Shown: positions 7,966-43,844 of the stretch, piece after piece | Layout: the number at the start of each line of letters is the position of its first letter | How positions within the stretch are numbered: position 1 is the first letter of the stretch | Assembly (NCBI GenBank): GCA_021789915.1 | Contig: JAJYIV010000002.1 | Location: 613 to 64,612 of the forward strand | Source of the DNA: a bacterium | GTDB lineage: Bacteria > Patescibacteriota > Patescibacteriia > UBA9934 > GWF2-40-263 | Reading direction: 5' to 3' | Length of the DNA stretch: 64,000 bases | Translations under genes and position numbers: made by a program | Notes under the pieces: generated by a model | Database searches by the model: none | What the model saw: the letters and a program-made list of their open reading frames with translations, nothing else | Told to the model about the DNA's origin: nothing

Positions 7966-8040
7966 GGGTCAGTAGCTCAGTGGTAGAGCCAGGGCCTTTT
8001 AAGCCCGCGGTCGTGGGTTCGATCCCCACCTGACCCACCA
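7966..8040 (+). tRNA. tRNA-Lys (anticodon TTT), CCA encoded
   Basis: Acceptor GGGTCAG/CTGACCC, D-arm GCTC-AGTGGTA-GAGC, anticodon loop CTTTTAA, T-arm GTGGG-TTCGATC-CCCAC. Confidence 0.85.
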
Positions 8041-8041
8041 G

Positions 8042-8165
8042 AAAACCGCCTAAAGCAGCGATCTATCGGCTCAGGCCTCGCGTGCTCGCTCACCGTACAT
8101 ATCAGTACGGCTCGCTGCGCCCGCTTCGGCCTTCACCGATATCTCATCTGCTTTAGGCGGTTTTT
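8042..8165 (+). ncRNA. Structured element immediately 3' of tRNA-Lys, closed by a 17-bp perfect inverted repeat (AAAACCGCCTAAAGCAG ... CTGCTTTAGGCGGTTTT) and ending in a T-run
   Basis: Long-range perfect stem enclosing internal hairpins (CCGTAC-ATATCA-GTACGG; UUCG-containing stem); could be a compound terminator or a small RNA. Confidence 0.4.
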
Positions 8166-8408
8166 AAGATGGGATCGAACCGGAAGCCGGAGAATGGTCG
8201 AGTCTTGCAACGGTCTCAGTGCAGAAGCTTGACGGAATCCTCATTCCTGGTATCTTTCGTCCTTGCTCTTTTTATGTTTTCAACGTTTGATTGAGCCATG
8301 AGGCAAGCGTTTTTCCGATCTTTTCGAAGGCCGGCAAGCCGCTTGTCTCATGGAAATGAGTCAGCCGCACCGGGAGTCCCCCGACTGCGAAACAAAAGGA
8401 GAATGACG

Positions 8409-9296
8409 ATGCCGGCCACGCCGATCACGTCACCTCAGAAGCGCAAGATCGCAGCCCTCGTCTCCGAAGCGACCGAGAAGGTCATCGAGGAGATGGGACT
8501 CGACAAGGAAGGCGCACAGTGGGTCATAGAGATGAACGGCGACGAATTCGCCGCCGCCGTGCGCGAGAAGGTTCGCGAGCTGCTCACCCGTCTCTCCGTC
8601 TCCGACCAGTTCGCCGACGAGGAAGTCGCCTCGAACTACGGCTATCTCTCCGGCTACAAGCAGCCGAAAGGGATCACCGAGCAGACCAACCGCCTGCGTG
8701 AGCTGATCCGAGGCGTCGGGTTCGCGGACGAGAAGTTGGCGGAGCTCCCTCTGCCGAAGCTCGCGGAAGGCTTCTTCGCCATCCCGAAGTGGGAGACGGT
8801 CGCCCCGACCTACGGCGAGGCCGTCCAGAAGGTGCAGGATCTCCTGAGGGCCCAGCGCGGCGGCAAGTTCTACAGCTACCGCGAAGGCCAGCTCGGACCC
8901 CTGCACCTCCGGCAGAGCGCCCGCTCCGTCGCGTTCTGGAAGCGGCTCGCCGACGCGCAGAAGGGCTACGACATCCTCGTCGTTCCCGCTCAGTTCGGCA
9001 AGCGCGACGGGATCTCTCGTTCCGTCCGCCGCTCTCGTGTGGTCTTCACGGCGCAGGAGTTCGGTCTCGGGGCGTTCGCTTCCGGGATCATGCTCCTCAC
9101 CCACCCGGAGCGTCTGCAGCACTACGACGATCTCTGGATCGACTGTGCCGGAGACGAGTACGCTCCGGGGGCTGACGACCAATTCGTCAACGCGCCGTAC
9201 TTCTACTTCGACGTTGACGGGCTCGAGTTCGACGCGTTCGGTGTCGGCAGCTACTACGACTTCTGCGGGTCTGCGTCGGCCTTCTCCCCGGAGTAG
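8409..9296 (+). CDS. Hypothetical protein (about 296 aa)
   Basis: GC3-rich ORF with SD AAAGGAG 7 nt upstream of the ATG at 8409; GC slightly lower than neighbours; no family recognised. Confidence 0.55.
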   Translation: MPATPITSPQKRKIAALVSEATEKVIEEMGLDKEGAQWVIEMNGDEFAAAVREKVRELLTRLSVSDQFADEEVASNYGYLSGYKQPKGITEQTNRLRELIRGVGFADEKLAELPLPKLAEGFFAIPKWETVAPTYGEAVQKVQDLLRAQRGGKFYSYREGQLGPLHLRQSARSVAFWKRLADAQKGYDILVVPAQFGKRDGISRSVRRSRVVFTAQEFGLGAFASGIMLLTHPERLQHYDDLWIDCAGDEYAPGADDQFVNAPYFYFDVDGLEFDAFGVGSYYDFCGSASAFSPE

Positions 9297-9439
9297 AGTC
9301 CTCGTCCCTCAGTTCCTTTGTTACTCTTTCCGTTCTTTCCGTCTTGTCCCTTTTCGGGACACTACCGGCGTTCGTTTCAACAAACGCCGGTATTTCTTTT
9401 TCTTCGGCGGGGATCGGAGAGTGTTGTAAATCTCCTTTT

Positions 9440-9568
9440 CTCGTCATTGCGAGGAGCTGGTCCCAGTCGTGGCGACGAAGCAATCCTGCAGTTTCCTTCG
9501 AGAACGGAAGGATTGCTTCGCTCCGGCCTCCGGCTTTCGCTCGCAATGACGAGTTTTGCAACGGTCTC
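9440..9568. repeat. Nested palindromic element (14-bp outer stem CTCGTCATTGCGAG/CTCGCAATGACGAG) ending in TTTTGCAACGGTCTC
   Basis: Nested inverted repeats (GAAGCAATCCT/AGGATTGCTTC; TTCCTTC/GGAAGGA); its 3' motif matches the 3' ends of elements at 13610..13713 and 24242..24411 and the motif at 8207. Confidence 0.45.
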
Positions 9569-9659
9569 TGATCGAACGCTTGACGCGGCGCTTGACGCTC
9601 CCTTCCCTCCCGTTCAACGTCCTTTATAATGAAGGGATACTCAATCATCCTTTCATCCT

Positions 9660-12543: not shown

Positions 12544-13602
12544 TCAAATCAGCGCGTCCAGCAGGGCAAGGGCGACGCCCAGCGCCGCGGCGACATACGC
12601 GACGACCCACAGGCGCATGACGATTTGCGGCTCCGGCCAGCCGCGCGCTTCCAAATGATGGTGGAACGGCGCGGACAGGAAGAGCTTGCGCTTGAACAGG
12701 CGCCGCCAGGCAAGCTGGAGCAGCACGGACAGCGATTCCAGCACGAACACGAATCCGATCACCGGCAACAGCAGGGCGGCGTTCGTCAGCATGGCGATGA
12801 CGCCCAGCGTGATGCCGAGCGACATGGATCCCGTATCGCCCATGAAGAAACGCGCCGGGTGGATGTTGAACCACAGGAAGGCGAGCAGGCCGCCGATGAC
12901 GGCGGCGCAGAAGACGGCCAAATCGTATTTGCCCTGCGCGAACGCGATCAAGGCGTAGGCGGCATAGGCGGGAAACAGGACGCCGCCGGCCAGGCCGTCC
13001 AGGCCGTCCGTCTCATTGACGGAGAAGGCCGTCGCGATGAGGACGGCCATGAAGACCGGCACGTACCACCAGCCGATGTCGAAGGTGCCGAAGAACGGCA
13101 CGTGCAGGATGCGCCAATCGAGCTTGACCGTGAACCACCAGGCGCCGACGGCGGCGATGGCCGCGTAAATGAGCAGGCGGTGGCGGGCGCGCAATCCGCC
13201 GCCATGCGCGCCGATGCGGCGGATGTTGAAATAATCGTCCACCAGGCCGACCAGCGCCGAGGCGACGAGGGCGCCGAGCGGCAGCAGCGTCTGCGCGCGC
13301 GTCAGGAAAGACAGCCGCGCGAACGCCGAATCCGGCAGCAGCCAGCCGAGCAGCGCGCACAGGAGGATCACGGCGAGCACCGTTCCCCACACGAGCAGCC
13401 CGCCCATGGTGGGCGTGCCCGCCTTCCTGGCATGCAGCCTGGCATAGACCGGCGTCTCTTCCGCCAGACGGATCGATTTGCCCATCTTGTGCGATTCCAG
13501 CCAATGCAGCAGCGCCGGCGCCCACAGGAACGCCAGCAGGAACGTAAGCGAGGCGATGACCAGAAGGCGGATCAGCTGGAAAGACGCGAGAGGGAGAGTC
13601 AT
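12544..13602 (-). CDS. mraY: Phospho-N-acetylmuramoyl-pentapeptide transferase
   Basis: 352 aa; motifs DDxxN, NxxNxTDGLDGLA, HHHLE typical of MraY. Confidence 0.85.
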   Translation of the reverse strand: MTLPLASFQLIRLLVIASLTFLLAFLWAPALLHWLESHKMGKSIRLAEETPVYARLHARKAGTPTMGGLLVWGTVLAVILLCALLGWLLPDSAFARLSFLTRAQTLLPLGALVASALVGLVDDYFNIRRIGAHGGGLRARHRLLIYAAIAAVGAWWFTVKLDWRILHVPFFGTFDIGWWYVPVFMAVLIATAFSVNETDGLDGLAGGVLFPAYAAYALIAFAQGKYDLAVFCAAVIGGLLAFLWFNIHPARFFMGDTGSMSLGITLGVIAMLTNAALLLPVIGFVFVLESLSVLLQLAWRRLFKRKLFLSAPFHHHLEARGWPEPQIVMRLWVVAYVAAALGVALALLDALI

Positions 13603-13609
13603 ACACGCT

Positions 13610-13713
13610 GAGACCCCTGAAAAACCGATGGGTGTTCGTTGTCCGCCGGAGGCGGATCCGGCTCTGCCGGAAATGGACTGCGGAACCCGCGAGACGAACA
13701 GGCGCGATTTTGC
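13610..13713. ncRNA. Structured element A with 10-bp terminal inverted repeats GAGACCCCTG...CAGAGGTCTC (MITE-like or intercistronic RNA; sits in the mraY leader if transcribed on the minus strand)
   Basis: Shares architecture and conserved single-stranded segments with element B at 24242..24411; internal hairpins CGCC-GGAG-GCGG, CCGGC-UCU-GCCGG and GCGG-AAC-CCGC. Confidence 0.5.
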
Positions 13714-13720
13714 AGAGGTC

Positions 13721-14116
13721 TCACAGGTTAAGCAGCACCATGAAGGTGGACGCGATGAGCAAGACGGTTTCGACGAACACGGTCAGGCCGAGAAAAAACA
13801 AGGCGATGAGGCGCTCGCGGCGGAAGGCCCAGGCGCCCACGGCGACATTCACCGCAAGGACGGCCAAGCCGAAGGCGGCCGGCGTGAAGAGCCGCCACCA
13901 CGGCCCGAACTGGTCCACGCCGAAATAAACCGTGCCGTGCAGCGGCACGTACATGCCCGGCGTCGCGCGCGGAAAGACTTTCCAAAACGGCAGGAAGGCC
14001 GTGAGCGCGACAAGCAGGAGAGAGACGGCGGTCAACCACCGGTAGGCGCGCGAACGGGCGAACAGATCGCGGAGAGAGGCGGCAGCGGCCCCCGACGCGT
14101 GACGGAGCGCGCGCAT
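13721..14116 (-). CDS. Hypothetical membrane protein
   Basis: 131 aa, 3-4 hydrophobic helices. Confidence 0.5.
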   Translation of the reverse strand: MRALRHASGAAAASLRDLFARSRAYRWLTAVSLLLVALTAFLPFWKVFPRATPGMYVPLHGTVYFGVDQFGPWWRLFTPAAFGLAVLAVNVAVGAWAFRRERLIALFFLGLTVFVETVLLIASTFMVLLNL

Positions 14117-14117
14117 A

Positions 14118-14402
14118 CTACTCGGCCGCAGGGATTTTTCGCCCGGCAGGGCCCGGGATGCCGACGTCTTCCGCCGTGGCCGACGCCGTCACTTCCTTCA
14201 CCCACGGCAACGCTTCCTGCAGCGCCATCTCAACGCCCATCCTGAGCGTGATCGCCGACATCGGGCAGCCGTGGCAAGCGCCCTGCAGGCGGACGCGCAC
14301 GACGCCCGTGGATTCGTCGAAATCGACCAGTTCGATGTCGCCGCCGTCCATGCGGAGCGCCGGCCGCACCCGTTTCAAGATTTCCTCGATTCGTTCGCGC
14401 AT
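14118..14402 (-). CDS. NifU-like Fe-S cluster assembly protein (Nfu C-terminal domain)
   Basis: GACHGCPMS CxxC motif; start taken at MRERIEEIL. Confidence 0.65.
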   Translation of the reverse strand: MRERIEEILKRVRPALRMDGGDIELVDFDESTGVVRVRLQGACHGCPMSAITLRMGVEMALQEALPWVKEVTASATAEDVGIPGPAGRKIPAAE

Positions 14403-14482
14403 AGGCGTGCAGAGTATAGCCCGAGGCGGGTCTTTGGCGCAATCAAAACGCCCCGTCTGCATGCAGGCGGGGCGCGTTTTTC

Positions 14483-14761
14483 TTACTTCGTTTCGACGCG
14501 GGCGAAGGTGCGCGTCTGCAGCTTGCCGGCGAAATTCGGCATGCGCTTCTTGGCGAACTTCACGATGCCGTCGACGGCCGCATACAGCGTGTCGTCGCCG
14601 CCTTGGCGCATGTTGGCGCCGGGATGGATCTTGGTGCCGCGCTGGCGCACCACGATCTGGCCGGCCTTGGTGACCTGTCCGTCGGCAATCTTCACGCCCA
14701 GGCGCTGACCATGGGAATCGCGGCCAAGGGTTGTGGAACCTGTCGCTTTTTTGTGAGCCAT
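14483..14761 (-). CDS. rpmA: 50S ribosomal protein L27
   Basis: MAHKKA...[18 protein letters not shown]... diagnostic of L27. Confidence 0.9.
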
Positions 14762-14771
14762 AAAGGAAAGC

Positions 14772-14800
14772 TTTTAGCCATTAGCCTTTAGCCATGAGCC
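14772..14800. repeat. Heptamer tandem array (TTAGCCA/TTAGCCT)
   Basis: GCTTTTAGCCATTAGCCTTTAGCCATGAGCC; same family as arrays at 21876, 26863, 55766 and 59468. Confidence 0.55.
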
Positions 14801-14885
14801 GGAAAAACCGACAGACTGGCAAGCGAATGCGGGCAGTGTAGAGGAAGGACGGCCGGACGTCAAGGCACAACCTTAGAGCACAACC

Positions 14886-16211
14886 TTAGAGCCTGTTCAT
14901 CCGGCAGACGAAGCTCTTCAAATACGCCGCCTCGGGGAAATACACGGACAACGGATGATCCGGGCTCTGACGCACGACCTCGAGCACCTGCAGGTCGACG
15001 CCCGCCTGCACCGACGCGCGGCGCAGCAGGAAGACCAAGTCCTCCTCCGGCAGGAAATGCGAACAGCTGGACGTGATGAAGATGCCGCCGTCCTTCACGA
15101 GCTTGAGCGCGGCGCGGTTCAGGAAATGATAGGCCTTCTTCCCTTCCTCGGCGTCCTTCATCGACTTGATGAGCGCCGGCGGATCCATAACGACGACGTC
15201 GAAAGCGCCGGCAACCCCCTCAGACTCCCCCTTGGCAAGGGGGAGATGGTGCGGGTTGGCGAGCCACTGGAAGACGTCCGCTTTCTCCGTCGCGCAGACC
15301 TCGTCGGACAAGCCGGCCGCCGCCGCCTGCGCGCGCAGCGATGCCAGCGCTTCCTCGGATCCGTCGACGTTCAGGACGGATTTCGCCCCGCCGGCGAAAG
15401 CGGCGAAGGACGTGGCACCGGTGTATGAAAAGAGATTCAGAACCGTCTTCCCTTGCGCGAGCGCGGCGACCCGGTCGCGCAGGTCCTTCTGGTCGAGGAA
15501 GAATCCCGTCTTTTGTCCGTGAAGAGGATCGGCGACGCAACGCCGGCCGTGCTCGAGAAATTCGACTTGACCCAATGCGCGTCCTCCCCTTTCCAAGGGG
15601 AGGCTGCCTGCTGGCCGCTTTTCAGCAGGCGGAGGTGTTGCCGGCGTGTGAATTCTGACGACCGCCTCCAGGTTCTCCTCGCGCCGGCTCGGCATGTCGC
15701 TGCGCTCGACGATCGCGCGCGGCTTGAACGTCTCTTCCAGCGCGGCGACGACGTCGTCACGCAGCGCGTCGAGACCGGCGGTTGCGATCTGGCATACGAG
15801 CACGTCGCCGTAGCGGTCGACGACCAAGCCCGGAATCCCGTCGGACTCGCCGAACACGCAGCGGTAGCCGGTCGTGAACTTCTCCCCCTTTTCAAGGGGG
15901 AGACTCTGCTCCAGAGGGGGTCGAGGGCCGTATCCCATCAAAACCCGTTTCTGGTGCGCATCCGCGATCTTGGCCGCCAGCCAGGCGCGGTCGATGACGG
16001 CCTCTTTGAACGCAAACACGCGCACGGCGATGGACGAGCTGGCGGAGTACGTCCCCGTGCCGATGATGCGCCCCTGGCGGTCCGCGACGTGCACGAGGGC
16101 GCCATGCTCGGGTTTCTTCTGACCGTCGGCCAGCGCGCGCGAAAAAATCCACGGATGGCGGAAGCCGACATTGGCCTCCTTCCCTTCTTTGAGCTTCAGG
16201 ACGGGGTACAT
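14886..16211 (-). CDS. rlmI: 23S rRNA (cytosine-C5)-methyltransferase RlmI (PUA + class I SAM MTase) carrying in-frame repeat insertions
   Basis: MYPVLKLKEGKE... PUA N-terminus and an Ado-Met MTase domain; 442 aa versus about 395 typical; extra segments coincide with repeat copies at 15225, 15583 and 15882. Confidence 0.75.
   Translation of the reverse strand: MYPVLKLKEGKEANVGFRHPWIFSRALADGQKKPEHGALVHVADRQGRIIGTGTYSASSSIAVRVFAFKEAVIDRAWLAAKIADAHQKRVLMGYGPRPPLEQSLPLEKGEKFTTGYRCVFGESDGIPGLVVDRYGDVLVCQIATAGLDALRDDVVAALEETFKPRAIVERSDMPSRREENLEAVVRIHTPATPPPAEKRPAGSLPLERGGRALGQVEFLEHGRRCVADPLHGQKTGFFLDQKDLRDRVAALAQGKTVLNLFSYTGATSFAAFAGGAKSVLNVDGSEEALASLRAQAAAAGLSDEVCATEKADVFQWLANPHHLPLAKGESEGVAGAFDVVVMDPPALIKSMKDAEEGKKAYHFLNRAALKLVKDGGIFITSSCSHFLPEEDLVFLLRRASVQAGVDLQVLEVVRQSPDHPLSVYFPEAAYLKSFVCRMNRL
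15225..15245. repeat. Partial family-P hairpin (CTCCCCCTTGGCAAGGGGGAG) inside rlmI
   Basis: seen directly. Confidence 0.55.
15583..15648. repeat. GC-rich palindromic repeat (family P, forward orientation) in-frame inside rlmI
   Basis: CCTCCCCTTTCCAAGGGGAGG-CTGCCTGCTGGCC-GCTTTTCAGCAGGCGGAGGTGTTGCC; near-identical to 63803..63868. Confidence 0.75.
15882..15922. repeat. Partial family-P hairpin (CTCCCCCTTTTCAAGGGGGAG) inside rlmI
   Basis: seen directly. Confidence 0.55.
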
Positions 16212-16333
16212 AGGAAATTCGTGAAGATAGATGCGCGAGAAGAAAGCGAGTATGACAGAACGCCGCCGTCTTGTCGAGGAGAAGGCCGCGCCAAGAAAAA
16301 GCCCTCGTCCAGCGCTGGACGAGGGAGAGTCTT

Positions 16334-18099
16334 TCAAGTGGCGTTCCCGATGTTGTGCCGGCAGTGATCCGGCAGCATCGGCTGCAGCTTCCTGCGGAAG
16401 GCGGACGGCACGCGCTGCCACAGCAGGCGCGCCGCTTCGGGCTCGGCGGCGAGTCCCCAGAAGAGATCCTTCCATCCGTCGAGGCCGACGCCCTTCACGA
16501 AATCGTCCGGCTGGTCGCGGGTAAGGAACGCGAGCAGCCACGCCAGGAAGCGGAAGTCCCCGCCCCACCGGACGCCGAATCCCGGACCGACGGCCTGTAC
16601 AAGTCGGTGCGGCGTCAGAGATCCGTCGAACGCGCCGGACGCGAACAGCGCGAGGATGCCGTCGCGCAGCGGTTGTTCGCCGGCTTCCCACGCGTGCATC
16701 CAGAACCCGAGATCGAGGCGCTTGTTGTCGGGCCGCAGAATTTCCGGACCGAGATGACGCACCGCCACGTTGAGGCACGCGTGCACATCCGACGGCGGCA
16801 GATCGCTCGCGATGACCGCCGCCCACGGATACTCGTCTCGCATGCGCCGCTTCACGTCCGACGGCCATCGTTCGGCCCCGCCGAGGTATTGGCGCAGCAG
16901 CTTGGGCGGCAGTCGCAGCAGCACGTTCGCGTCCGCCGTCGCGACGACCAGGTCGGCGATCGTGCGCGACGCGCCGACGCCGTGGACGAAGATCCAGGCC
17001 GACCACGTGCGCAGCACTTCCTCTTCGCCCACGTCGATGTCGTCGCTCGCGAGAAACCGCGCCTTCACGGCGTCCACGAACGCGAGGAACGACTCCCTGG
17101 CGAACGCGACGAACGCGTCTTCGTCGCGCGAATCGTCCAACGGAACCTTGTCAAAGATGCGCTCCGGTTCCATGCACACGGTCGACAGCCGCAGCCATCG
17201 GCGCAGCGCGTCGACGGCCGCCGGCAATCGGCGCGCCACGGCCTGCGGCTCGAAGAACGTCCGCTCGACCAGATCCTTGAGCGCCAGCGGCTCGACCTGG
17301 AAGTTCAAATCCATGAAGCGGTCGAGGGACGTGCCGAGCCCGCCCGACACCGGGAGGAACAACGCATCCGGAAGCGTGAGCGCCCGGACGAAGTAGCTGC
17401 GGACGAACAGGTCCAGCAAGCCGCCGTGCGGGCACGGCGCGTCGACAGCCGGACGCCGGAACAGCCGGCGGACGTACACGTTGATGATGTCGTCGCCGCT
17501 GAACCAGCCTCGGATCGGGAACTGCTCCGCCGCCCGGCGCAGCAGCCGTTCGTTCTCGTCGCACGAAGCGACAGCGGCCAGGTACGCGGCGCGATCGGAC
17601 GGCGCGGACGCGCCGCGCGCGAGCGAGGCCAGCGCCTGCTCGCGCCCGACGCTCAGAAGCCCGAAGGCCGAGCCGCTGAGTACGACGACGTTCCGCCGCG
17701 ACAGGGACGCGGCGCGCACGGCGAGCTCCGAAAGGAGCGCGGCGCCGACACCGTACATCTCGAACAGCGACGCGGCACGCAGCATCACGACCGCGGCGTC
17801 CGCGTCGCCCTCCGCCGCTTCTTCGAGGCCGAGCGACAGGCACGCGCCGACGCGTTCCATGGCGGCGCGCCGGCCGTCCGGCTGCAGGAGATCGAGCTTC
17901 CGCTCGGCCGCCGCCTGAACAAGGCAGGCCTGCACGGCGTCCGCATCCGCGTCGCGCGCGGCGAGCTCCGCGTCCTGCCGGGCCCGCGCGTACGCGGCGC
18001 GGAAGAACGCGGAGGCGGTGCCCGGCTCTCGGCATTCGGCGCTCGGCGCGCGGAACGACCGCGCGAGCGCGCCTCCCGCTTGAACAATCGCCGTGTTCA
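16334..18099 (-). CDS. Hypothetical protein (about 588 aa), GTG start overlapping the upstream stop (GTGA)
   Basis: Long GC3-rich ORF; no motif recognised; N-terminal third Ala-rich and helical; the listed 736-aa ORF is an upstream over-extension. Confidence 0.5.
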
Positions 18100-18939
18100 C
18101 GGCCGCTCCTTCTCCGCGACGACCGCCTGCGCACGCAGCCGCTCGATGAGCGACTTCGCACTGACGGCGCTCGTGCGCGTCTTCGCTTCCTCCTGCGTCC
18201 GGCGCAGCAGCGCGGCGGCGCCCTCGGTCACCTCGACCGTCGCCGGGTGCGCGTCGAGCCAGTCGAACCGCTCTTCGAGCACGTGCAACGCGAGCGTCTG
18301 CCGATCGCCGGTGTTCATCCAGTAGACCACGGCGGAAGCGGCATTGAACGCCGCGGCGGCGATCTGCGTCACCCGCTCTTCCGCGTCTTCCGCGTCCAGC
18401 AAGGCGAGCGCCCAGTACTCGGCAGGCATCGCCTCGAGCGCCGCGCGCTTCCACGCGGCGTCGTTGCCGCTGTCCAGGACGGCGACGAGACGCTCGTACG
18501 CCTCGCTCGCGCGCACCTGGCACGGAAAGTTGCGGACGCCCCACAGCGTCACGGACGTCCCGACTGGATTGAAGTGGAGCGGGACGAGCCGGTTCCCCAG
18601 CGTCTTCACGAGCCCGCGCGCCTTGAGCGCCGCGTACTCCGCCGCCGACAGCTCGAAGTACCCGCCGTCCGCCAGCTCGTCGCCAAACCGGCCGAAGACC
18701 GGATCGAACACGTGCGCATCGCGCCGCAACACCTCTGGCACCTGCCCGGTCGCAAGCGCGGCGATGACGGCGCTGCGCGCGCTGCGCGTCGGCAGCGTCA
18801 GGAGCGCGGCGGCGACCTGCACGGCCGGCAGCGACGCGACGGCCGCCAAGCCTTGCGGCGTGTCGAGCCGAACGATCGAAACCGGCACGCCCGCCGGACG
18901 CGCGAGAGCTTCCGTCTGGTTTTGAAGGGTCTCACCCAT
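18097..18939 (-). CDS. Hypothetical protein (about 280 aa)
   Basis: Start MGETLQNQ preceded by GGAGGAAG SD; translationally coupled to the downstream 588-aa gene. Confidence 0.5.
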   Translation of the reverse strand: MGETLQNQTEALARPAGVPVSIVRLDTPQGLAAVASLPAVQVAAALLTLPTRSARSAVIAALATGQVPEVLRRDAHVFDPVFGRFGDELADGGYFELSAAEYAALKARGLVKTLGNRLVPLHFNPVGTSVTLWGVRNFPCQVRASEAYERLVAVLDSGNDAAWKRAALEAMPAEYWALALLDAEDAEERVTQIAAAAFNAASAVVYWMNTGDRQTLALHVLEERFDWLDAHPATVEVTEGAAALLRRTQEEAKTRTSAVSAKSLIERLRAQAVVAEKERP

Positions 18940-19051
18940 CTGTCTTCCTCCGAGGAAGCCTGGGCACCCGGGAATCGGATGCGCAGGCGGCCGAAGGAAG
19001 ACGGCGGACCATAACAATAAAACCGCCGCGTGTCAATCAAAAGCCGTCCGC

Positions 19052-19477
19052 TTACGACGCCAGCCCGAGCTTTGCCTCGACGACCTGCAAACGCCCCTCG
19101 AAGCGATCCATCCGCAAGGTCGGCGCGACCAGCTCCTGCTCGATCGTCAGCTGCAGCCGCGCCACCTGGTCGCTCACGGCAAGGACTTCCTGACGAACGT
19201 CTTGAAGATCCTCCTTTGTCGCGAAACGGTCGAAATCGTCTTTCGTGGCAAAGTTCTGCAGATCGTCTTTCGTGGCAAAGTTCTGCAGATCGTCTTTCGT
19301 GGCAAAGTTCTGCAGATCGTCTTTCGTGGCAAAACGGTCGAAATCGGCCTTCATTGCCACATTCTCCTTTACGAAACCGATGAATTCGTGCATTTCCGAC
19401 GTTAAACCTTCGACCTTCCGTTCAAGGCCATCGAACTTCTGCGCCAGCTGATTTGTCGTCAGGTGTTCCTCACTCAT
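19052..19477 (-). CDS. Coiled-coil protein with four tandem 9-aa repeats (FATKDDLQN), low-GC gene
   Basis: 141 aa; encoded by 27-nt tandem DNA repeats; GC clearly below flanking sequence. Confidence 0.6.
   Translation of the reverse strand: MSEEHLTTNQLAQKFDGLERKVEGLTSEMHEFIGFVKENVAMKADFDRFATKDDLQNFATKDDLQNFATKDDLQNFATKDDFDRFATKEDLQDVRQEVLAVSDQVARLQLTIEQELVAPTLRMDRFEGRLQVVEAKLGLAS
19215..19345. repeat. 27-nt tandem repeat (GATCGTCTTTCGTGGCAAAGTTCTGCA, about 4.5 copies) inside a CDS
   Basis: Near-perfect direct copies seen directly. Confidence 0.8.
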
Positions 19478-19595
19478 ATATCGCTTCGAAGTATACGTCC
19501 TGAATTAAATCGCTTCAAACGAAAAGATCCCGCGTCTGTTTCAGACAGGGGATCTTTTGTCTCTGTGTGCATTTAAGCGGAAAAAACGGGTTTCG

Positions 19596-20252
19596 TCAAT
19601 CGTCGTGTGTGGATATCTTCCGCTCCTTCAACAAGATAAGCGCCCGTCCAGACAACGGATTCTTAAGAATGCCTTCGATCTTCCACGCCGCCTCCTTGAA
19701 ATGAATGCCTTCCCCTTCCAATTGCTTCTTCCATCGAGTGAGCGGCACCGCATGCAGTCCGCCGTCTAAAGCGGCGGCAGGCGCATCGATTTCTTCCAGG
19801 TCCATCACGTGAATGGCGATGCCGCCTTCCCGTAACGCATTCCATGAATTCATCAGGACGTCCCACTGCTTTTCCGTCTCGATGAACTTCAAGAAGACGT
19901 GCGCGTACGTGATGTCGTACGGCCCGCCGGGGAAAGGTTTTGTCGCGTCATGTCGAATGACGCCAGGCGCCCCAGCAAGATGCTCGATAGCAATGTCCGA
20001 GGTCGTGAGATCGACGTCTCGACCCAACAATGACGAAAAGATGCGACGATGGTGATCGATGAAGCGCCTGTCCCCGCATCCGACGACGAAGATGCGAACG
20101 TGTTCATGCGCAGGATGACAAGGAACAACCGAAAAGATAGTTTTCAATTCCCGTTCCTTGATGTCTGCTCGGCGTTGAATTTCCGCATCGGACAGCGCCG
20201 CATACTTTTTGTGATAGTCGGAGAGGGCCATATGAATTTTTCTATTGCGCAT
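19596..20252 (-). CDS. Class I SAM-dependent methyltransferase-like protein (low-GC)
   Basis: Motif I VVGCGDRRF, acidic end of beta-2 (DLTTSD), motif IV-like DITYAHVFL. Confidence 0.5.
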   Translation of the reverse strand: MRNRKIHMALSDYHKKYAALSDAEIQRRADIKERELKTIFSVVPCHPAHEHVRIFVVGCGDRRFIDHHRRIFSSLLGRDVDLTTSDIAIEHLAGAPGVIRHDATKPFPGGPYDITYAHVFLKFIETEKQWDVLMNSWNALREGGIAIHVMDLEEIDAPAAALDGGLHAVPLTRWKKQLEGEGIHFKEAAWKIEGILKNPLSGRALILLKERKISTHDD

Positions 20253-20253
20253 T

Positions 20254-21864
20254 CTATTTCGCGACCGCCTTCAGGAACGCCCTGAACAGCGGATGCGGCT
20301 TCAGGGGCGAAGACTGGAACTCGGGATGGAATTGCACGCCGACGAAAAACGGATGATCCTTCAGCTCGATGATCTCCACGAGCTGACCGTCCGGAGACGT
20401 GCCGGCGACCACCAGCCCCGCCTTCGTCAGCGTCTCGCGGTACGCGTTGTTGAACTCGTAGCGGTGGCGGTGGCGTTCGCGGATCGCCGCCGTCCCGTAG
20501 GCGTGGCGGCTCACCGTCCCGGGCTTCAGCGCGCAGTCCCAGCTGCCCAGGCGCATCGTCGCGCCGTATTCGCGGTTCAACAGCTTTTTTTCCTGATCAG
20601 GCATGATGTGGACGACGGCGTGCGGCGCCTGCGGATCGATTTCCGTCGTATGCGCGCCCTTCAGTTCGCACGCGTCGCGGGCGAATTCGACGGCGGCCAG
20701 CTGCATGCCGTAGCAGAGGCCGAAGTACGGAACTTTTTTCTCCCGCGCGTAACGGATCGCCGCGATCACGCCTTCGATGCCGCGCGAACCGAAGCCGCCC
20801 GGCACCAGGACGCCGTCATAGCCCGCAAGGATTTTCTCCGCTCCGTGCTTTTCGATGTCCGCCGCGTCGATCCACGTGATCGCCGGCTTGCGGCTGATGG
20901 CCCACGCGGCGTGCTTCACCGCTTCGATGACGGAGATGTACACGTCGGAAAGCATGAAATCGCCGACGGCGAAATACTTGCCGACGATGGCGATCTTCAC
21001 GTCCCTCTTTGCGCGCCGGATCGCGTCGACGACGTCGCGCCACGGCTTCAAATCGGCGCGCTTCGGCTTGAGGCCGAGCCGCGCGAGCAGCCGCTGCGCG
21101 AAGCGCTGGTCTTCCAGGATGAGCGGCACCTCGTAGATCGATCCGCAATCCGGGTTGCTGATGACGTCCTCCTTGGCGACGTTGCAGAACAGCGCGATGC
21201 GCTCCTTGCGGCGGCCGTCCATCGCCTGCGACGAGCGGCCGACGACGAAATCCGGCTCGATGCCCATGCCGTTCAGCATGCGGACGCTCTGCTGCACCGG
21301 CTTCGTCTTCATCTCGCCCAGCGCGCCGGGAATCGGCAGGTACGCGACATGCACGTGCGCGACGTTCTTCGGCTCGCGGCGGCCGAGCAGGCGCGCCGCC
21401 TCGAAGAAGATGCCGTTCTGGTACTCGCCGACGGTGCCGCCCAGCTCGACGACGCAGATGTCGGCGCCCTGCCCGCCCAGCTTGAAGCGGCGGATGATCT
21501 CGTCGGTGACGTGCGGAATCGCCTCGACATCTTCGCCTTCGTAGGCAAACGCGCGCTCGCGGCGCAGCACTTCCGCGTACACCTGGCCCGTCGTCGCGTA
21601 CTGCGCGCGATGCAGCGGCCGGCCGATGAAGCGCTCGTAGTTGCCCAGGTCCTGGTCGGTTTCCAACCCGTCTTCCGTGACGAACACTTCCCCGTGTTCC
21701 GAAGGGCGTATGGTGCCGGCGTCCTGGTTCAGGTACATGTCCACCTTCATCGGCGCGACGCGGTAGCCGCGCGCTTCCAAGAGCGCCGACAACGACGCGG
21801 CGGTGATGCCTTTGCCGAGGCCGGAGATGACGCCGCCGGAGACGAACACGTACTTGGTGGGCAT
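20254..21864 (-). CDS. pyrG: CTP synthase
   Basis: 536 aa; N-terminal synthase domain plus C-terminal glutamine amidotransferase (GLCYGMQ, HPEF). Confidence 0.9.
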   Translation of the reverse strand: MPTKYVFVSGGVISGLGKGITAASLSALLEARGYRVAPMKVDMYLNQDAGTIRPSEHGEVFVTEDGLETDQDLGNYERFIGRPLHRAQYATTGQVYAEVLRRERAFAYEGEDVEAIPHVTDEIIRRFKLGGQGADICVVELGGTVGEYQNGIFFEAARLLGRREPKNVAHVHVAYLPIPGALGEMKTKPVQQSVRMLNGMGIEPDFVVGRSSQAMDGRRKERIALFCNVAKEDVISNPDCGSIYEVPLILEDQRFAQRLLARLGLKPKRADLKPWRDVVDAIRRAKRDVKIAIVGKYFAVGDFMLSDVYISVIEAVKHAAWAISRKPAITWIDAADIEKHGAEKILAGYDGVLVPGGFGSRGIEGVIAAIRYAREKKVPYFGLCYGMQLAAVEFARDACELKGAHTTEIDPQAPHAVVHIMPDQEKKLLNREYGATMRLGSWDCALKPGTVSRHAYGTAAIRERHRHRYEFNNAYRETLTKAGLVVAGTSPDGQLVEIIELKDHPFFVGVQFHPEFQSSPLKPHPLFRAFLKAVAK

Positions 21865-21875
21865 AGGGGGAAGCG

Positions 21876-21912
21876 GTTAGCCATTAGCTGTTAGCCGTTA
21901 GCTTCTAACTGT
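21876..21912. repeat. Heptamer tandem array (TTAGCCA/TTAGCTG/TTAGCCG/TTAGCTT)
   Basis: seen directly between pyrG and rplI. Confidence 0.55.
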
Positions 21913-21950
21913 TGACGAGAAACGGAAACACCTGCGGCGAGCGCAGGTGG

Positions 21951-22397
21951 TCAAGGAGACGGTTCGACAATGAGGGTGAATGAGGCTTCCGCCGTCGGGG
22001 CGAGGCGTGCGACGATCTTCGAGGTACCGGCGTTCTTCACGGGCTTGAACCCGGCGAGCGCGTGCTCGGGAACGGCGAACCCGGCTTTCGCGAGCGCCTC
22101 CGCGACCGTGCGCGGCGTGACGGCAGCGTAGAGATGTCCGGTTTCGGTGGCGGATTCCTTGAGGACGAGGCGGAACCCGTTCAGCCGCCGCGCCGTCTGC
22201 TGCACGGTCCCCGTCGCCTGCTTTGCCCGGCGGGCTTCGGCGTCCTTCTTTTCCTTGAGTCGGCGCCGCGCGTCCGCCGATGCCGGCACGGCCGCGCCCG
22301 AGGGGAGCAGCTGGTTGCGCGCCTGGCCGTCGGAGACCGTCACCATGTCCCCGGCCCGACCCAATCCTTTGACGGCCTTCACGAGAATGACATCCAT
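21951..22397 (-). CDS. rplI: 50S ribosomal protein L9
   Basis: MDVILVKAVKGLGRAGDMVTVSDGQARNQLLP... L9 N-domain. Confidence 0.85.
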   Translation of the reverse strand: MDVILVKAVKGLGRAGDMVTVSDGQARNQLLPSGAAVPASADARRRLKEKKDAEARRAKQATGTVQQTARRLNGFRLVLKESATETGHLYAAVTPRTVAEALAKAGFAVPEHALAGFKPVKNAGTSKIVARLAPTAEASFTLIVEPSP

Positions 22398-22485
22398 AGC
22401 ACGGCGGCAGTATACGCCCGCGCGGCGTCAGCGGGAAATCGCGGGCGGTGGATAACGCGGACGGGGACAGTTCTATTTCCGTTTG

Positions 22486-22652
22486 ACATCTGCGTGTTCG
22501 CCGGTCTTCCCGCCTTCTGTACATCCGAGAAGGACGGCATGGTCGTCACCCTCCCCTACCCGTTAGCGAACGGTCGGGAGAATTCTGTCAGCTTCCGACT
22601 CCGCGGGAAGACAACGGTCCTCGCCGCGCCGCACATCGTCTACGTCCACTGA
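22486..22652 (+). pseudogene. 3' fragment (about 55 codons) of a paralog of the small membrane protein gene at 24740..25207; no plausible start codon
   Basis: ICVFAGLPAFCTSEKDGMVVTL...APHIVYVH aligns with ACVFGGLPAICETSKRGTDVAVFL...APHIIYVP; the downstream 81 bp is nearly identical. Confidence 0.55.
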
Positions 22653-22706
22653 CGCACGCGCGTCCGCGCGGTTCGTGAGCCCGACGCTCACGGCCGCCGC
22701 GGGCGC
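22625..22706. repeat. Left copy of an 81-bp direct repeat (4 mismatches to 25181..25261)
   Basis: GCGCCGCACATCGTCTACGTCCACTGACGCACGCGCGTCCGCGCGGTTCGTGAGCCCGACGCTCACGGCCGCCGCGGGCGC; contains palindromes GTGAGCCCGACGCTCAC and CGCGCGTCCGCGCG. Confidence 0.8.
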
Positions 22707-22749
22707 GATCTTTTTTGTAAACCAAACCCCGCCAGGTTTCTTTTTTGCC

Positions 22750-23205
22750 TCATGTCACTTCGTCGCGAACCGCCGCCAGCAAATCTTCCAACCGCGCGAA
22801 CAGCGGCAACCGGAACCGGTCGCAAACCATCTCGACGTTTCCCTTGCGCCAGAATCCGTCCGGGCAGCACACCAGGACGTGCTTGTCCTTCACCAAGCCG
22901 AGCTCGAGCAGGCTGATCGGACTCTTGGTCGCCGGATCGAAATAAAACGCGACGACGTCCGCCCGGTCGAGTCCGTCCATCTCCCACGTGACCTGCCGGT
23001 TGAACTCGGGGTTCGCCATGGATTGCTTCCAGGAGGCGTCCCATGCGGCACGCCGCGGATTCAGCACGGTCGCGTCGGTGTCCGCGAGCGCGGCGACCGC
23101 TTTCGCCTGCCAGGGTTCGGCGGCCCCCATCTCGATGCTGCCGGCGAGGAAGACGACGGGGGACGCGGCGTCGGCGAAGGAATCGGGCGGCTGGATGTGG
23201 CGCAT
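22750..23205 (-). CDS. Nucleoside 2-deoxyribosyltransferase-like protein
   Basis: 151 aa, PVVFLAGSIE...VCCPDGFW Rossmann-like NDT fold; the rest of the listed 487-aa ORF is GC-driven read-through. Confidence 0.55.
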   Translation of the reverse strand: MRHIQPPDSFADAASPVVFLAGSIEMGAAEPWQAKAVAALADTDATVLNPRRAAWDASWKQSMANPEFNRQVTWEMDGLDRADVVAFYFDPATKSPISLLELGLVKDKHVLVCCPDGFWRKGNVEMVCDRFRLPLFARLEDLLAAVRDEVT

Positions 23206-23343
23206 AGGAAGGAGACGGCCGTCTTTGTACCACGGCGCCCCGATCGGCGCGAGCCGCGGATGGCAGGCGGCGATTGACAAGGTGCGAAAAAAGACCGAAG
23301 GTACCCGCGGTTCATCGCGGCCGCAAGCCGCACGGAGGGAACC

Positions 23344-24144
23344 ATGATTTCCGAGACGAAGATCGAGATCGTCACGCACGTAACGATAGAGGAACAGCCC
23401 GGCCGGAACGTCTGCGCGAACGACTATCGCAGCATTCTGCCACGACCCAACGACGACGGCATCCTGCTCGACCGGGAGACGGTCGAGCGCTTGTTCGCCG
23501 CGACGGATCTCGATGCGTTCCTCTCGTCCCTGCCGGGAATCTCGACGGATACGTGGCACCGTCACGCCGTCCTCGCGAACGTCATCAAGTTCTCGGAACC
23601 GACGGACGGAAACGCGTTCGGCATCGTCCTCGCCTGGACGACGAAGCGCCACCCCGCCTTCGGCGGCGATCCGACGAGCATGATGGATTACGCCATCGGC
23701 GTGCTCCCCGTGCCGACCGAAACGGCGGCGGTGGCCGCGAAGCTCTTCGCGCGCCGCTCGCTCCTGGCGGACTTGAAACTCGACGACCGCGGCCAGCGCG
23801 AACGGCAGGAGGAAATCCTGAAGGCCATCGGATGGGACGACGGAGCCGAGACCGCGCAGGCGCTGCGCGCGCTGCGCGAGGAGATGATGAGACGCTTGGA
23901 CGAGCTCACAAAAGCGCTCGAGGCGCGCGAGCGGGCGCGGGTGCAGGCCGTCCTCGGCTTGGCCGGCGTGTCGAGCGCTCAGCTCGACGCGCGCGTCGCG
24001 GACGTCGATGGTCAGCTCGACGCGGCGTTCAATGCGATGGCGACGGATCCGAAGCGGCTCGAACCTACGGCGCTCGCGAAGTGCGAGCTCGACATCTACG
24101 GCGCCGTTCCGCCCATCCTGCACGCAAGACTCACGGCCCAATAG
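23344..24144 (+). CDS. Hypothetical protein (266 aa)
   Basis: SD GGAGGG 6 nt upstream of ATG; GC3-rich; no family recognised. Confidence 0.5.
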   Translation: MISETKIEIVTHVTIEEQPGRNVCANDYRSILPRPNDDGILLDRETVERLFAATDLDAFLSSLPGISTDTWHRHAVLANVIKFSEPTDGNAFGIVLAWTTKRHPAFGGDPTSMMDYAIGVLPVPTETAAVAAKLFARRSLLADLKLDDRGQRERQEEILKAIGWDDGAETAQALRALREEMMRRLDELTKALEARERARVQAVLGLAGVSSAQLDARVADVDGQLDAAFNAMATDPKRLEPTALAKCELDIYGAVPPILHARLTAQ

Positions 24145-24241
24145 CCGTTCTCGACGCCTCTCCGCGAGGCGTTTTTCTTTTCGGGTTCGAAAAAGCTCCA
24201 ACGGGATCGCCACCGCGGCGGGTATCGCTTTCTTTGGAGCT

Positions 24242-24411
24242 AAAGAAAGATTGAGACCTCTGAAAAACTGATGGATTTTCGTTGTCAGCCAAAGGCTGAT
24301 CAGCCTCTGGCTGAAATGGGCTGCCGAGCCCCGCGAACCCTACTGAAACGTAGGGAGAGCGGGGTCGGCGGGCGCCCATGAAACGAAAAGACGCCGTTTT
24401 GCAGAGGTCTC
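24242..24411. ncRNA. Structured element B with 10-bp terminal inverted repeats GAGACCTCTG...CAGAGGTCTC (homologous to element A)
   Basis: Compensatory changes relative to A: CAGCC-UCU-GGCUG versus CCGGC-UCU-GCCGG, and UUUUCGUU/AACGAAAA versus UGUUCGU/ACGAACA; conserved CUGAAAAAC-YGAUGG, AAUGG and UUUUGCAGAGGUCUC segments. Confidence 0.55.
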
Positions 24412-24420
24412 GATTCTTTG

Positions 24421-24456
24421 CAAACCAAACCCCGCCTGGCCTGCAGGCGGGGCGGT
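24421..24456 (-). terminator. Rho-independent terminator on the minus strand (CCCCGCCTGCAGGCCAGGCGGGG + UUUGGUUUG)
   Basis: Perfect GC stem followed by a U-rich tract on the minus strand. Confidence 0.6.
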
Positions 24457-24467
24457 TGGTCCCGGGT

Positions 24468-24543
24468 CGTGGTGGACCTGATGGGAGTCGAACCCACATC
24501 TTATGGTGCTAACTCAGGCGAGGTTACCGTTTCCTCCACAGGC
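24468..24543 (-). ncRNA. tRNA-like element with encoded CCA and a non-canonical anticodon arm (tRNA pseudogene or tRNA-like small RNA)
   Basis: Acceptor GGGCCUG/CAGGUCC (one GU pair), D-arm GAGG-AAACGGUAA-CCUC, T-arm GUGGG-UUCGACU-CCCAU, discriminator A plus CCA; the 21-nt anticodon region cannot form a 5-bp stem. Confidence 0.45.
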
Positions 24544-24654
24544 CCCTATCCCTTCCCCGGGTCATTGGATAACGAAAAATCCCTCAGGCCCTTTCGGACC
24601 ATGGGGGATTCTTCTAGCACCAGGAGCAAGCCGTATGCTCACCTGAGTGACTCA

Positions 24655-36598: not shown

Positions 36599-37354
36599 AT
36601 GGTGTGGTTCGACCTCAACCCGAATGCCGATGGTCCCCACGAGGTGGCCGCGCTTGTCTCGGCCCGGGGCGTCAACGCTCTCACGGGCCAGCGCCTGACC
36701 CCGCCGCCGCGATTGGAGCAGTACGCGCACCAGTGTCCCGTGCACGCCGTGCCGTTCACGCGCGTGGGGACGGAAACGAAGTTCTGCCCGACCTGCAACT
36801 TCGGCTGGGCGCCCCAGAACTACTTCTCGACCACGTCGGTCGGCCGCGGCCTCTTCTGGCGCGACGGCTTTCGCGGCCCCGACGGGAACACGCGCGAATT
36901 CGTCTTCACCGCGGAGCGGAATCGCGGCGTCGCGCGCGCCGTGATCGGCGACGACGCCGTGGACGCGTTCGGCGTCGCGCTGTTTCGCTCCGCGAAGTCC
37001 AAGGCGCCGCCCGTCGCATACCGCACGCCGTACGCGTTCAAGGGTTCGCCCTTTTCATTCGGAGGCGAATTCGGCGGCGTCCGACTCGAATCGTCCGCCA
37101 GTCACCGTCGGCACCTCGGGATTGCCGAACGGAACGAAGCGCTCGAGGTAGCCGCCGGCGCCGTCGTCGATCAGGGTGTCAGGCCGGACGAACACCGGCT
37201 CGACTTTTGGAGGGAAGCGCCCGACGCCTGCCTCATCCTGTACTACGTCGGACCGCATGCCTTCCGCGACATCGCCGGTTTCGACGGCACGGAAAATCCC
37301 GCCGACGAAGGCTGGCTCGGCAAAGCCGGCGTGCCGGTGGGCAACGACGCGTAG
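36599..37354 (+). CDS. Hypothetical protein (251 aa)
   Basis: SD GAGGAAGG 5 nt upstream of ATG; motifs QCPVHAVPF and CPTCNFGW; no family recognised. Confidence 0.45.
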   Translation: MVWFDLNPNADGPHEVAALVSARGVNALTGQRLTPPPRLEQYAHQCPVHAVPFTRVGTETKFCPTCNFGWAPQNYFSTTSVGRGLFWRDGFRGPDGNTREFVFTAERNRGVARAVIGDDAVDAFGVALFRSAKSKAPPVAYRTPYAFKGSPFSFGGEFGGVRLESSASHRRHLGIAERNEALEVAAGAVVDQGVRPDEHRLDFWREAPDACLILYYVGPHAFRDIAGFDGTENPADEGWLGKAGVPVGNDA

Positions 37355-37371
37355 AGCCTGTTCTCCCTTCC

Positions 37372-37398: not shown

Positions 37399-37706
37399 AG
37401 AGCCTGTCCAGCATCTTTCTTCCAGGGACATTCGGATGACGTTTTGTGCGAAACATGTGATGGCTGACGAAGCGTAGCCAACGCTACGGTGAGGAGGCCA
37501 GCGCATGTTGCAGCCAAAACGGCGCCAAATGGAGCCGGGAGAGGAGATGTTGAACAGGCTCTTACGGACGCGCAAGACCGAAGGCTTGCCCTATGCGCGC
37601 CGATGCGCCGGCCCGCGAAGCTGCCATGGGCCGTACGGGATCGACCCGCCGCCCTTCTCTTCTCTTCCGCCGCCTCTTCCGGACCGGCGGTTTTCAGATA
37701 ACGAAA

Positions 37707-43262: not shown

Positions 43263-43844
43263 TCAAGAGGATCTCGAGGGAACGGCCTTCCGATGCCCGA
43301 AGACGTATTCCATGCCCTTGCGCAGGATCGGGATCATGTCCGAATAACTGGAGGCCTGCAGAACCCGCTTGGCATTGACCCATCGCGCTTCGTACGCATG
43401 CTGGGTCGGATCCGGATGCAAGGCCGCCTGTTCCGGAGCCTCGAACAGATAATAATGAATGTCCTTGTGGACAAGGGCGCCGTGCTTCTCGAAGCGATCC
43501 CTGAACCAGATGTCAATCTTGCCCAGGTATTCCAGCAGGCGTATCTGCTCGAGGCCGAGCTCTTCCAAGGTCTCGCGCGCCGCGGCCTCCTCCAGCGTCT
43601 CCCCGTTTTCCACGCGGCCCTTCGGGAAGGCCCACTTGCCGTAGGAGTCGAGCATCACGGCGAAAAACACGCCGCGGGAAGTGCGCTTGAAGACGACGCC
43701 GCCTGCCGACACTTCCTGCACCGCCCGCTCGCCCGCCTGCCGGCCGCCGGACGGGCGGCCGGACAAGGAACGATCAACGCTTCCCGGCAAGGGCGGCCTG
43801 GATGATCGCAACGGCTTTTTCCTTTTGTACATCCCGCTTGTCAT
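43263..43844 (-). CDS. NUDIX hydrolase
   Basis: Nudix box GKWAFPKGRVENGETLEEAAARETLEELG; the start is uncertain because the listed ATG overlaps about 70 nt of the ctp 3' end (a GTG near 43720 is an alternative). Confidence 0.65.
   Translation of the reverse strand: MTSGMYKRKKPLRSSRPPLPGSVDRSLSGRPSGGRQAGERAVQEVSAGGVVFKRTSRGVFFAVMLDSYGKWAFPKGRVENGETLEEAAARETLEELGLEQIRLLEYLGKIDIWFRDRFEKHGALVHKDIHYYLFEAPEQAALHPDPTQHAYEARWVNAKRVLQASSYSDMIPILRKGMEYVFGHRKAVPSRSS

Follow-up and report, generated by a model that had tools for sequence, protein, structure and literature searches.

Two palindromic elements in a Patescibacteria genome probably belong to a family of miniature inverted-repeat transposable elements with a strand-asymmetric rod fold

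The window analysed here is a 64,000-nucleotide stretch of DNA from a bacterium of the Patescibacteriota (positions 613 to 64,612 of contig JAJYIV010000002.1, assembly GCA_021789915.1), in which an earlier note had described two homologous structured elements, called A and B below. Element A exactly fills the gap between two minus-strand genes, with the ATG of mraY (12544..13602; Pfam matches Glycos_transf_4 and MraY_sig1) on one side and, on the other, the stop codon of an open reading frame (ORF) for a 131-aa membrane protein (13721..14116). This agrees with its earlier placement between a membrane-protein gene and mraY, and the last two bases of A are the GA of the TGA stop codon of the 131-aa ORF. 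Element B is flanked by terminator-like hairpins, one at 24153..24173 after the gene at 23344..24144 and one at 24453..24429 that belongs to the tRNA at 24470..24545; the window strain's own contigs end inside B. We found no ORF inside either element. The limits first given for the elements had to be shifted: A ends at 13722, not at 13713 (9 nt had been cut off), and B starts at 24253, not at 24242 (11 nt of flank had been included). The parts of the two elements are as follows, with scores from R1, a covariance model built from the core of the family described below.

13610..13722, plus strand: element A, 113 nt, a decayed 'type I' copy (R1 52.9 bits)
13610..13638, plus strand: left terminal inverted repeat of A, GAGACCCCTGAAAAACCGATGGGTGTTCG
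13642..13671, plus strand: 30-nt double-hairpin module in A, TCCGCC-GGA-GGCGGA then TCCGGC-TCT-GCCGGA
13695..13722, plus strand: right terminal inverted repeat of A, CGAACAGGCGCGATTTTGCAGAGGTCTC
24249..24252, no strand: left copy of the target-site duplication (TSD) of B, GATT
24253..24411, plus strand: element B, an intact 159-nt 'type I' copy (R1 62.7 bits)
24253..24281, plus strand: left terminal inverted repeat of B, GAGACCTCTGAAAAACTGATGGATTTTCG
24285..24314, plus strand: 30-nt double-hairpin module in B, TCAGCC-AAA-GGCTGA then TCAGCC-TCT-GGCTGA
24384..24411, plus strand: right terminal inverted repeat of B, CGAAAAGACGCCGTTTTGCAGAGGTCTC
24412..24415, no strand: right copy of the TSD of B, GATT

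A and B are homologous, with 76% column identity in alignment, and both fold as closed rods with common closing stems (GAGACCYCTG...CAGAGGTCTC), as had been claimed. In the 64-kb window there are exactly two occurrences of the 22-nt left-end motif, where 0 would be expected. On both strands the predicted folds of A and B are closed rods (z-scores –3.5 to –11) that contain the AAAAC/GUUUU and UUCGU/ACGAA pairings proposed in the earlier note, and the covarying hairpins are likewise present, as TCCGGC-TCT-GCCGGA in A (13657..13671) and TCAGCC-TCT-GGCTGA in B (24300..24314). B is composed of a 129-nt core rod and a 30-nt double-hairpin module; the module in A is of the same kind as the modules inserted at loop positions of other copies. 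As an independent repeat, the double-hairpin module was not found in the window, where it is present only inside A and B.

When we scanned one genome per species with GACCNCTGAAAAACNGATGG, we found many further copies in other metagenome-assembled genomes (MAGs): 50 loci, ~35 of which are true copies, with ~28 loci in the MAG CAYJVP01, 5 in CAZPPQ01 and the rest in four Uhrbacteria MAGs and one Parcubacteria MAG. CAYJVP01 and CAZPPQ01, which hold most copies, were deposited as 'uncultured Gammaproteobacteria'; the MraY of CAYJVP01 is 70% identical to the window MraY, that of named Uhrbacteria is 65-68% identical, and both MAGs are probably mislabelled genomes of the Candidate Phyla Radiation (CPR). 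Many copies are located at contig ends and four are packed into 8 kb of L026 (collected loci are given by L numbers); at ~30 or more copies per ~1-Mb genome, the family breaks assemblies, and contigs end in copies. All copies share a left end G[GA]GACCTCTGAAAAACTG... and a right end ...CAGTTTTGCAGAGGTC[CT]C. The terminal inverted repeats (TIRs) are imperfect and ~20-29 bp long, G[GA]GACCTCTG[AC]AAAAC (the left-end pattern is also written G[GA]GACCNCTG[AC]AAAA), and the base at their second position changes together with the one it pairs with (AU in 8, GC in 8). Copies measure 113-352 nt, mostly 127-129 or 158-159 nt, around a core of 127-129 nt, and the longer ones (158-206 nt) hold additional hairpin modules. 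At L043:522-664 the right end is tandemly duplicated (TTTGCAGAGGTCCC-A-TTTGCAGAGGTCCC).

An exact 4-bp direct repeat flanks 17 of the 31 complete copies in our first set; when this set was enlarged by a looser end search, we found an exact 4-bp repeat in 20 of 37 copies and a repeat with one mismatch in 8 more. As a control, we paired flanks from different copies, of which 0.4% matched exactly, and abutting repeats of 3, 5 or 6 bp were found in no copy. The duplicated 4-bp sequences are diverse, with GATT/GATT at B. Some copies carry an unrelated interior between the same ends: L013 (352 nt, TSD TGAA) and L018:298-458 (161 nt, TSD TTGT) with a 4-bp TSD, and L045:1743-1903 with a 4-bp repeat that has one mismatch. 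Such unrelated interiors on shared ends with a TSD are what one would expect of a transposase that acts on the ends and carries whatever lies between them as cargo.

To describe the fold of the core, we ran RNAalifold on 18 distinct core copies. The consensus is an unbranched rod of 53 pairs, with 97.4% of cells paired, and two-sided changes are found in 21 of the 53 pairs. Shuffles give 8.9 ± 1.6 such pairs, with 0 of 500 as high as 21, and sliding the partners gives 3-5. As the copies share a common descent, these pair counts, and the loop and strand counts given below, are counts of non-independent events. The stem covariation in the earlier note is thus correct and statistically strong. 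Covariation alone does not separate an RNA gene from a palindromic mobile element, which is a warning for RNA-motif discovery: a good fold together with covariation is insufficient to indicate an RNA gene. Reading the copies against the consensus structure, we found that all four insertion sites of extra hairpin modules are at loops or bulges of the rod.

One way to read this structure is as a gene for a small structured RNA or as an mraY leader that acts in cis: a 6S-like RNA or a leader, as raised in the earlier note, or else a riboswitch or an attenuator. A directly adjoins the start codon of mraY, on the minus strand the only Shine-Dalgarno-like AGGGG sits within the closing stem of A, and the strong fold z-scores and the covariation also speak for such an RNA. 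However, the element is absent upstream of mraY in relatives. The record of the window strain itself (L055) carries A at the same junction, whereas in L056 (MraY 86% identical) and in L059 and L060 (76%) the 131-aa gene is separated from mraY by only 4 nt. By blastn, the joined flanks of A are continuous with L056 across the junction (487 nt at 79.7%), and this comparison places the insertion after the T of an ancestral TAA stop, with A now giving the GA of the new TGA. In L058 (MraY 80%), A is absent and there is a short plain spacer. In L057 (MraY 82%), A is also absent; an unrelated ~97-nt palindrome (AGGGTGTAGCGTGTAGGAGGTAGGG...CCCTAAACACTACGCCCTAAACCCTCC, L057:362-458, orthologous to window 13603..13720) is found at the same junction, where palindromic elements that are unrelated to each other thus seem to land repeatedly. 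Because relatives have only 4 nt where A sits, A is an insertion and not an mraY leader. Elsewhere, B adjoins no related gene and lies beyond two terminator-like hairpins, dozens of copies sit in unrelated intergenic contexts with duplications, and Rfam at E <= 10 gives no match on A and B, 6S included. 6S RNA is likewise rod-like with internal loops, but it is single-copy, ~180 nt long and has a large central bubble, whereas the A/B family is multi-copy and flanked by duplications. We regard an RNA gene or mraY leader as very improbable.

A second empty site was found for the copy in L020, the flanks of which are colinear without an insert in window 43570..44048, L043 and L026. For B, an empty site was not obtainable, the flanking 266-aa protein having no homologue in 5.8 billion proteins. 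The family inserts between tightly coupled essential genes, such as the 131-aa gene and mraY, and could be used as a strain marker.

A MITE, or miniature inverted-repeat transposable element, is defined as a small element (usually <200 bp, up to ~400 bp) with TIRs and a TSD, without a transposase gene and with a long stem-loop fold (PMC3184786). In the A/B family we found small size without a transposase gene, TIRs, a TSD of fixed length, dispersed copies and an empty site. Taken together, these data make it likely that A and B both represent one non-autonomous DNA transposon, namely a MITE that measures 113-352 nt and has a core of 129 nt. 'MITE with hairpin ends' was the other alternative in the earlier note, and copy number, TIRs, exact 4-bp TSDs, shared ends with different interiors and the empty site all support it. 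We infer a DDE-type transposase and a cut-or-copy mechanism: a transposase supplied in trans would recognise the ~20-29-bp TIRs, the target would be cut with a 4-bp stagger and the element inserted, and gap repair would then duplicate the 4 bp. On this model, B would be a fairly young, intact copy (TSD GATT) in the gap between convergent terminator-like hairpins, and A would be an old, internally deleted copy whose insertion separated the start of mraY from the TAA stop of the 131-aa gene. The whole element is an imperfect palindrome that forms a rod, maintained by compensatory changes, with modules added only at loops.

Several observations weigh against the MITE interpretation, and we set them out here and in the following paragraphs on strand asymmetry and on related rods. 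There is no TSD around A; the central rod of A is deleted (113 nt as compared to a 129-nt core) and one of its GA/GA loops is changed to GG/GG, which marks A as old and decaying and fits a lost duplication. An autonomous element or transposase gene between these ends was not found in ~0.5 Mb of collected loci, the window, a viral collection and plasmids. Solo ends (L002, L013:6531, L020:5693, L037, L043, L047, L049 and others) and the ORFs adjacent to them proved to be truncated copies, chance matches and ordinary genes. Among 20 window ORFs searched with Pfam (including those at ~6.5-9.3 kb, 23-25 kb and 36-39 kb), none is a transposase; in the viral collection, the end motif gave 2 chance coding matches and the tip motif of the rod none, and a plasmid BLAST search with the left end gave chance matches only.

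The fold is also asymmetric between strands. The strand that reads GGGACCTCTGAAAAAC... is the better-folding one in 30 of 33 copies, by ~10 kcal/mol relative to its complement; among the 3 exceptions, L026:3132 looks misoriented, with its end types reversed. Three 2x2 loops of the rod are symmetric and carry 5'-GA on each side (tandem G·A); they are kept in 17, 14 and 17 of the 18 core copies. Several G·U pairs and these three 5'-GA/5'-GA loops, which are conserved and function on just one strand, are the reason that this strand folds ~10-13 kcal/mol better. Such strand-specific conservation of the fold exceeds what a DDE transposon needs, and the single-stranded fold of one strand is probably under selection as well, in the simplest case as a transcript.

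A strand-specific fold and a palindromic rod shape could alternatively point to a REP/REPIN-like or IS200/IS605-derived palindrome moved as single-stranded DNA by an HUH (Y1) transposase, and hairpins of DNA, too, are stable with G·T and sheared G·A pairs. REP/REPIN and IS200/IS605 elements are likewise palindromic, multi-copy and intergenic, and in them the hairpin matters. They rely on HUH transposases and have no transposon-type TIRs and no TSD, inserting instead beside a fixed short sequence, whereas the A/B family has true TIRs and exact 4-bp duplications of varied sequence. No TnpA/RAYT (Y1, HUH) gene was seen in the ORFs inspected, a search that was not exhaustive, and there was no Rfam match to IS605-related RNAs or HEARO. 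We therefore hold movement by an HUH transposase to be most unlikely. At the gathering score, Rfam found only tRNA and rRNA in the whole window and 19 related loci, and at E <= 5-10 nothing relevant was found, with HEARO, IS605-related RNAs, group II intron D5-D6 and SRP RNA considered; the comparison with 6S and IS605 RNAs that the earlier note had in mind thus gave no family. A hammerhead core, a C/D box or K-turn, SRP RNA, integron attC sites and plasmid single-strand origins were also considered; the anatomy does not support them, and there is no Rfam match where models exist.

Relatives of the rod with other ends are found in the window and beyond. Besides R1, we built a broader covariance model, R2, from a wider set of rods. 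The two relatives in the window, neither of which is in the earlier note, are a clear one and a weak one.

8042..8164, minus strand: diverged rod relative, 123 nt (R1 60.4 bits, R2 100.4 bits)
37418..37542, plus strand: weak, more diverged rod relative, 125 nt (R1 31.1 bits, E ~1e-5)

In the 8042..8164 rod, the three GA/GA loops and the tip GAGCCGTACTGATATGTACGGTGAG are kept, but the ends differ, being perfectly complementary over 17 nt (AAAACCGCCTAAAGCAG). This rod lies 1 nt after a tRNA-Lys and is antisense to it, no TSD was seen, and an empty site was not found because the neighbouring major facilitator superfamily (MFS) protein has no close relative. An 11-nt piece of the tRNA-Lys T-arm, repeated in inverted form, brackets the rod (8015..8025/8170..8180; GGTTCGATCCC / GGGATCGAACC), which suggests that part of another tRNA gene, in inverted orientation, has been left beside it. 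The 37418..37542 rod has no match with R2 at E <= 0.1. Its hairpin extends outward to a AGAGCCTGTYCARCATC inverted repeat at ~37399..37562 (arms 37399..37416 and 37546..37562); a third, partial copy, TAGAGCCTGTTC, is at 37353..37364, directly after the stop codon of the upstream gene, and a terminator-like hairpin lies between this copy and the left AGAGCCTGTYCARCATC repeat. R1 also finds a rod just upstream of tRNA-Met in L018. In all three rods (8042, 37418 and L018), the GA/GA loops and a near-identical tip are kept; their ends are different and mutually complementary. The tip, GAGCCGUAC-loop-GUACGGU (for example at 8090..8115, minus strand), is one that we take to be like the base of group II intron domain 5; the Rfam group II model gives no match, and the likeness may be coincidence.

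When we scanned metagenomes with the tip motif, we found 22 loci, 18 of them distinct, with rods of 122-126 nt that have unrelated outer stems and R2 scores of 64-119 bits; the scan fixed the tip sequence, so that conservation of the tip is partly ascertainment. In the broad alignment, two-sided changes are found in 25 of 30 predicted pairs, and G·U pairs are conserved at columns 59-78 (19 of 20 rods) and columns 21-117 (13 of 20). In 20 of 20 diverse rods, the same strand folds better, by a mean of 12.8 kcal/mol. Hosts beyond CPR include a Deltaproteobacteria MAG and a human-gut contig. Homologous rods with unrelated ends sit in tRNA and rRNA operon spacers of other bacteria: seven precede a same-strand tRNA by 1-14 nt, another two lie beside tRNAs in antisense orientation, and a further two, also antisense, are in 23S-5S spacers. 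Around rods that are not type I, whose ends are placed only approximately, we saw no 4-bp duplication. One of the organisms with an antisense rod in the 23S-5S spacer is that of L063, where we also noted that the 23S match at L063:10786-12057 (the L075 locus) covers 864 model positions in 1272 nt, which implies a ~400-nt insertion in the 23S gene.

The strand-specific fold and the wider rod family are unexplained by transposition. They raise the possibility that the rods are a strand-specific structured RNA of stable-RNA operons, serving as a processing, stability or protein-binding module, with type I as a mobilised, SINE-like branch (SINE, short interspersed nuclear element). The 18 distinct rods with unrelated outer stems, their range from CPR to a Deltaproteobacteria MAG, the two-sided changes, the uniform strand preference, the conserved G·U pairs and 5'-GA/5'-GA loops, the seven rods closely upstream of a same-strand tRNA and the lack of a visible 4-bp duplication are all consistent with it. 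The orientation of the rods, however, is inconsistent, given the two antisense beside tRNAs, the two antisense in 23S-5S spacers and element A, whose better-folding strand is antisense to the operon. Tight spacing to tRNAs would be expected of any insert into a short spacer, duplications could be missed where rod ends are approximate, and the conserved tip is in part a product of the scan. We consider this explanation possible but doubtful. Only tentatively, then, would we name an undescribed RNA family, with a length of ~125 nt, three loops of tandem G·A, conservation of its G·U pairs and the conserved tip GAGNCGUACUNANAUGUACGNUGAG as its marks.

Type I copies occur in both orientations relative to genes, and no association of type I copies with tRNAs was found. 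Where the neighbours of a type I copy are co-directional and could be called with confidence, the strand that folds better runs antisense to these genes in 8 of 8 cases, which counts against the RNA-module explanation but is a hint only, as gene calls are crude: gene orientation came from two home-made gene callers, two known genes were mis-called and the overall result is mixed. The orientation data do not decide between transposition only and an RNA module. Every rod may instead be a MITE from one of a set of related families, in which older members have lost their duplications, with the fold then kept for an RNA-level reason such as tolerance in transcripts or processing. If the fold does have an RNA function, the elements would spread a structured RNA module through the genome; if the RNA-module explanation is true, the family would be a bacterial counterpart of SINEs, a small structured RNA spreading as a MITE.

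Under the MITE interpretation that we prefer, the A/B family is new and the MITE an already known kind of element. The genomes of CPR/Patescibacteria are small, mobile DNA is generally held to be scarce in them, and we found no description of MITEs in CPR bacteria in the searchable literature. The Correia elements (CREE/NEMIS) of Neisseria, the textbook MITE of bacteria, are ~100-155 bp long with TIRs of ~26 bp and a 2-bp TSD (TA), are present as dozens to hundreds of intergenic copies and give transcripts that fold into long hairpins; to our knowledge, they have no transposase gene and no known parent insertion sequence. The A/B family is like them in size, TIRs, short TSD, intergenic copies and absence of a transposase gene, but differs in its varied 4-bp TSD, its CPR/Patescibacteria hosts and its strand-asymmetric fold with three GA/GA loops, and there is no sequence similarity. 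ERIC/IRU elements of Enterobacteria and Vibrio are ~127-bp imperfect palindromes, intergenic and often transcribed, with larger variants that arise by insertion at a few fixed internal sites and with reported orientation-dependent RNA-hairpin effects on mRNA. Their ends and duplications are much less clear-cut, in contrast to the shared ends and the exact TSDs in 20 of 37 copies of the A/B family, and again there is no sequence similarity. Other small structured intergenic repeats, mobile now or formerly and with stable RNA folds, are bcr1 and its related repeats in the Bacillus cereus group and RUP and BOX of Streptococcus pneumoniae (PMC3184786). Their hosts, ends and duplication lengths differ from those of the A/B family. 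We know of none among them that keeps regularly spaced tandem G·A loops.

The earlier note had also linked to the elements a motif, TYTTGCAACGGTCTC, said to terminate two other palindromic elements at 8207 and 9554. The motif, which we place at 8203..8217 and 9554..9568, is real and enriched, with 6 matches in the window as compared to 0.23 expected and 4 of the 6 inside A and B. The sequence TTGCAACGGTCTC at 8203 and 9554 resembles the right end of the elements at 15 of 18 positions. The similarity between the two sites runs 17 nt past GGTCTC, making a 36-nt direct repeat (8199..8234 / 9550..9585, 81% identity), and with the family model the palindrome at 9440..9553 scores 11 bits only; GGTCTC is thus not demonstrated as an element end there. 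No matching left end or duplication is evident at either site. The two copies of the 36-nt repeat bracket the orphan gene 8298..9296, and at the end of the repeat, 11 nt beyond TTGCAACGGTCTC, is TTGACG. In the first copy, this forms the -35 hexamer of a site before that gene that is promoter-like (TTGACG-16-TATCTT with TG). We read the repeats as paralogous promoter-region repeats, or possibly as remnants of a related end.

Around the second of these sites, at 9416..9568, is a 153-nt palindrome (CTCGTCATTGCGAG...CTCGCAATGACGAG). Its inner hairpin is formed by CGAAGCAATCC/GGATTGCTTCG, and its inverted ends, GAGAGTGTTGTAAA / TTTTGCAACGGTCTC, match imperfectly; GATCG is found on both sides, one base out of register. 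This palindrome goes unrecognised by the rod models and may be a different small repeat family. In the MAGs that carry the A/B family, a second repeat family of ~110-130 nt, unrelated to the rods, is dispersed as well; it surfaced as cross-matches of the left flank of the L050 copy and has sites at L050:126-233, L035:4540-4664, L023:3580-3685 and L045:1916-2009 and in L030, L025, L014 and L049. Two odd tRNAs are found in the window: the 76-nt tRNA next to B (24470..24545, anticodon AGC) scores only 39.8 bits with Rfam and has anticodon-stem mismatches, and a 94-nt 'tRNA-Ala(GGC)' at 40523..40616 is called by ARAGORN only.

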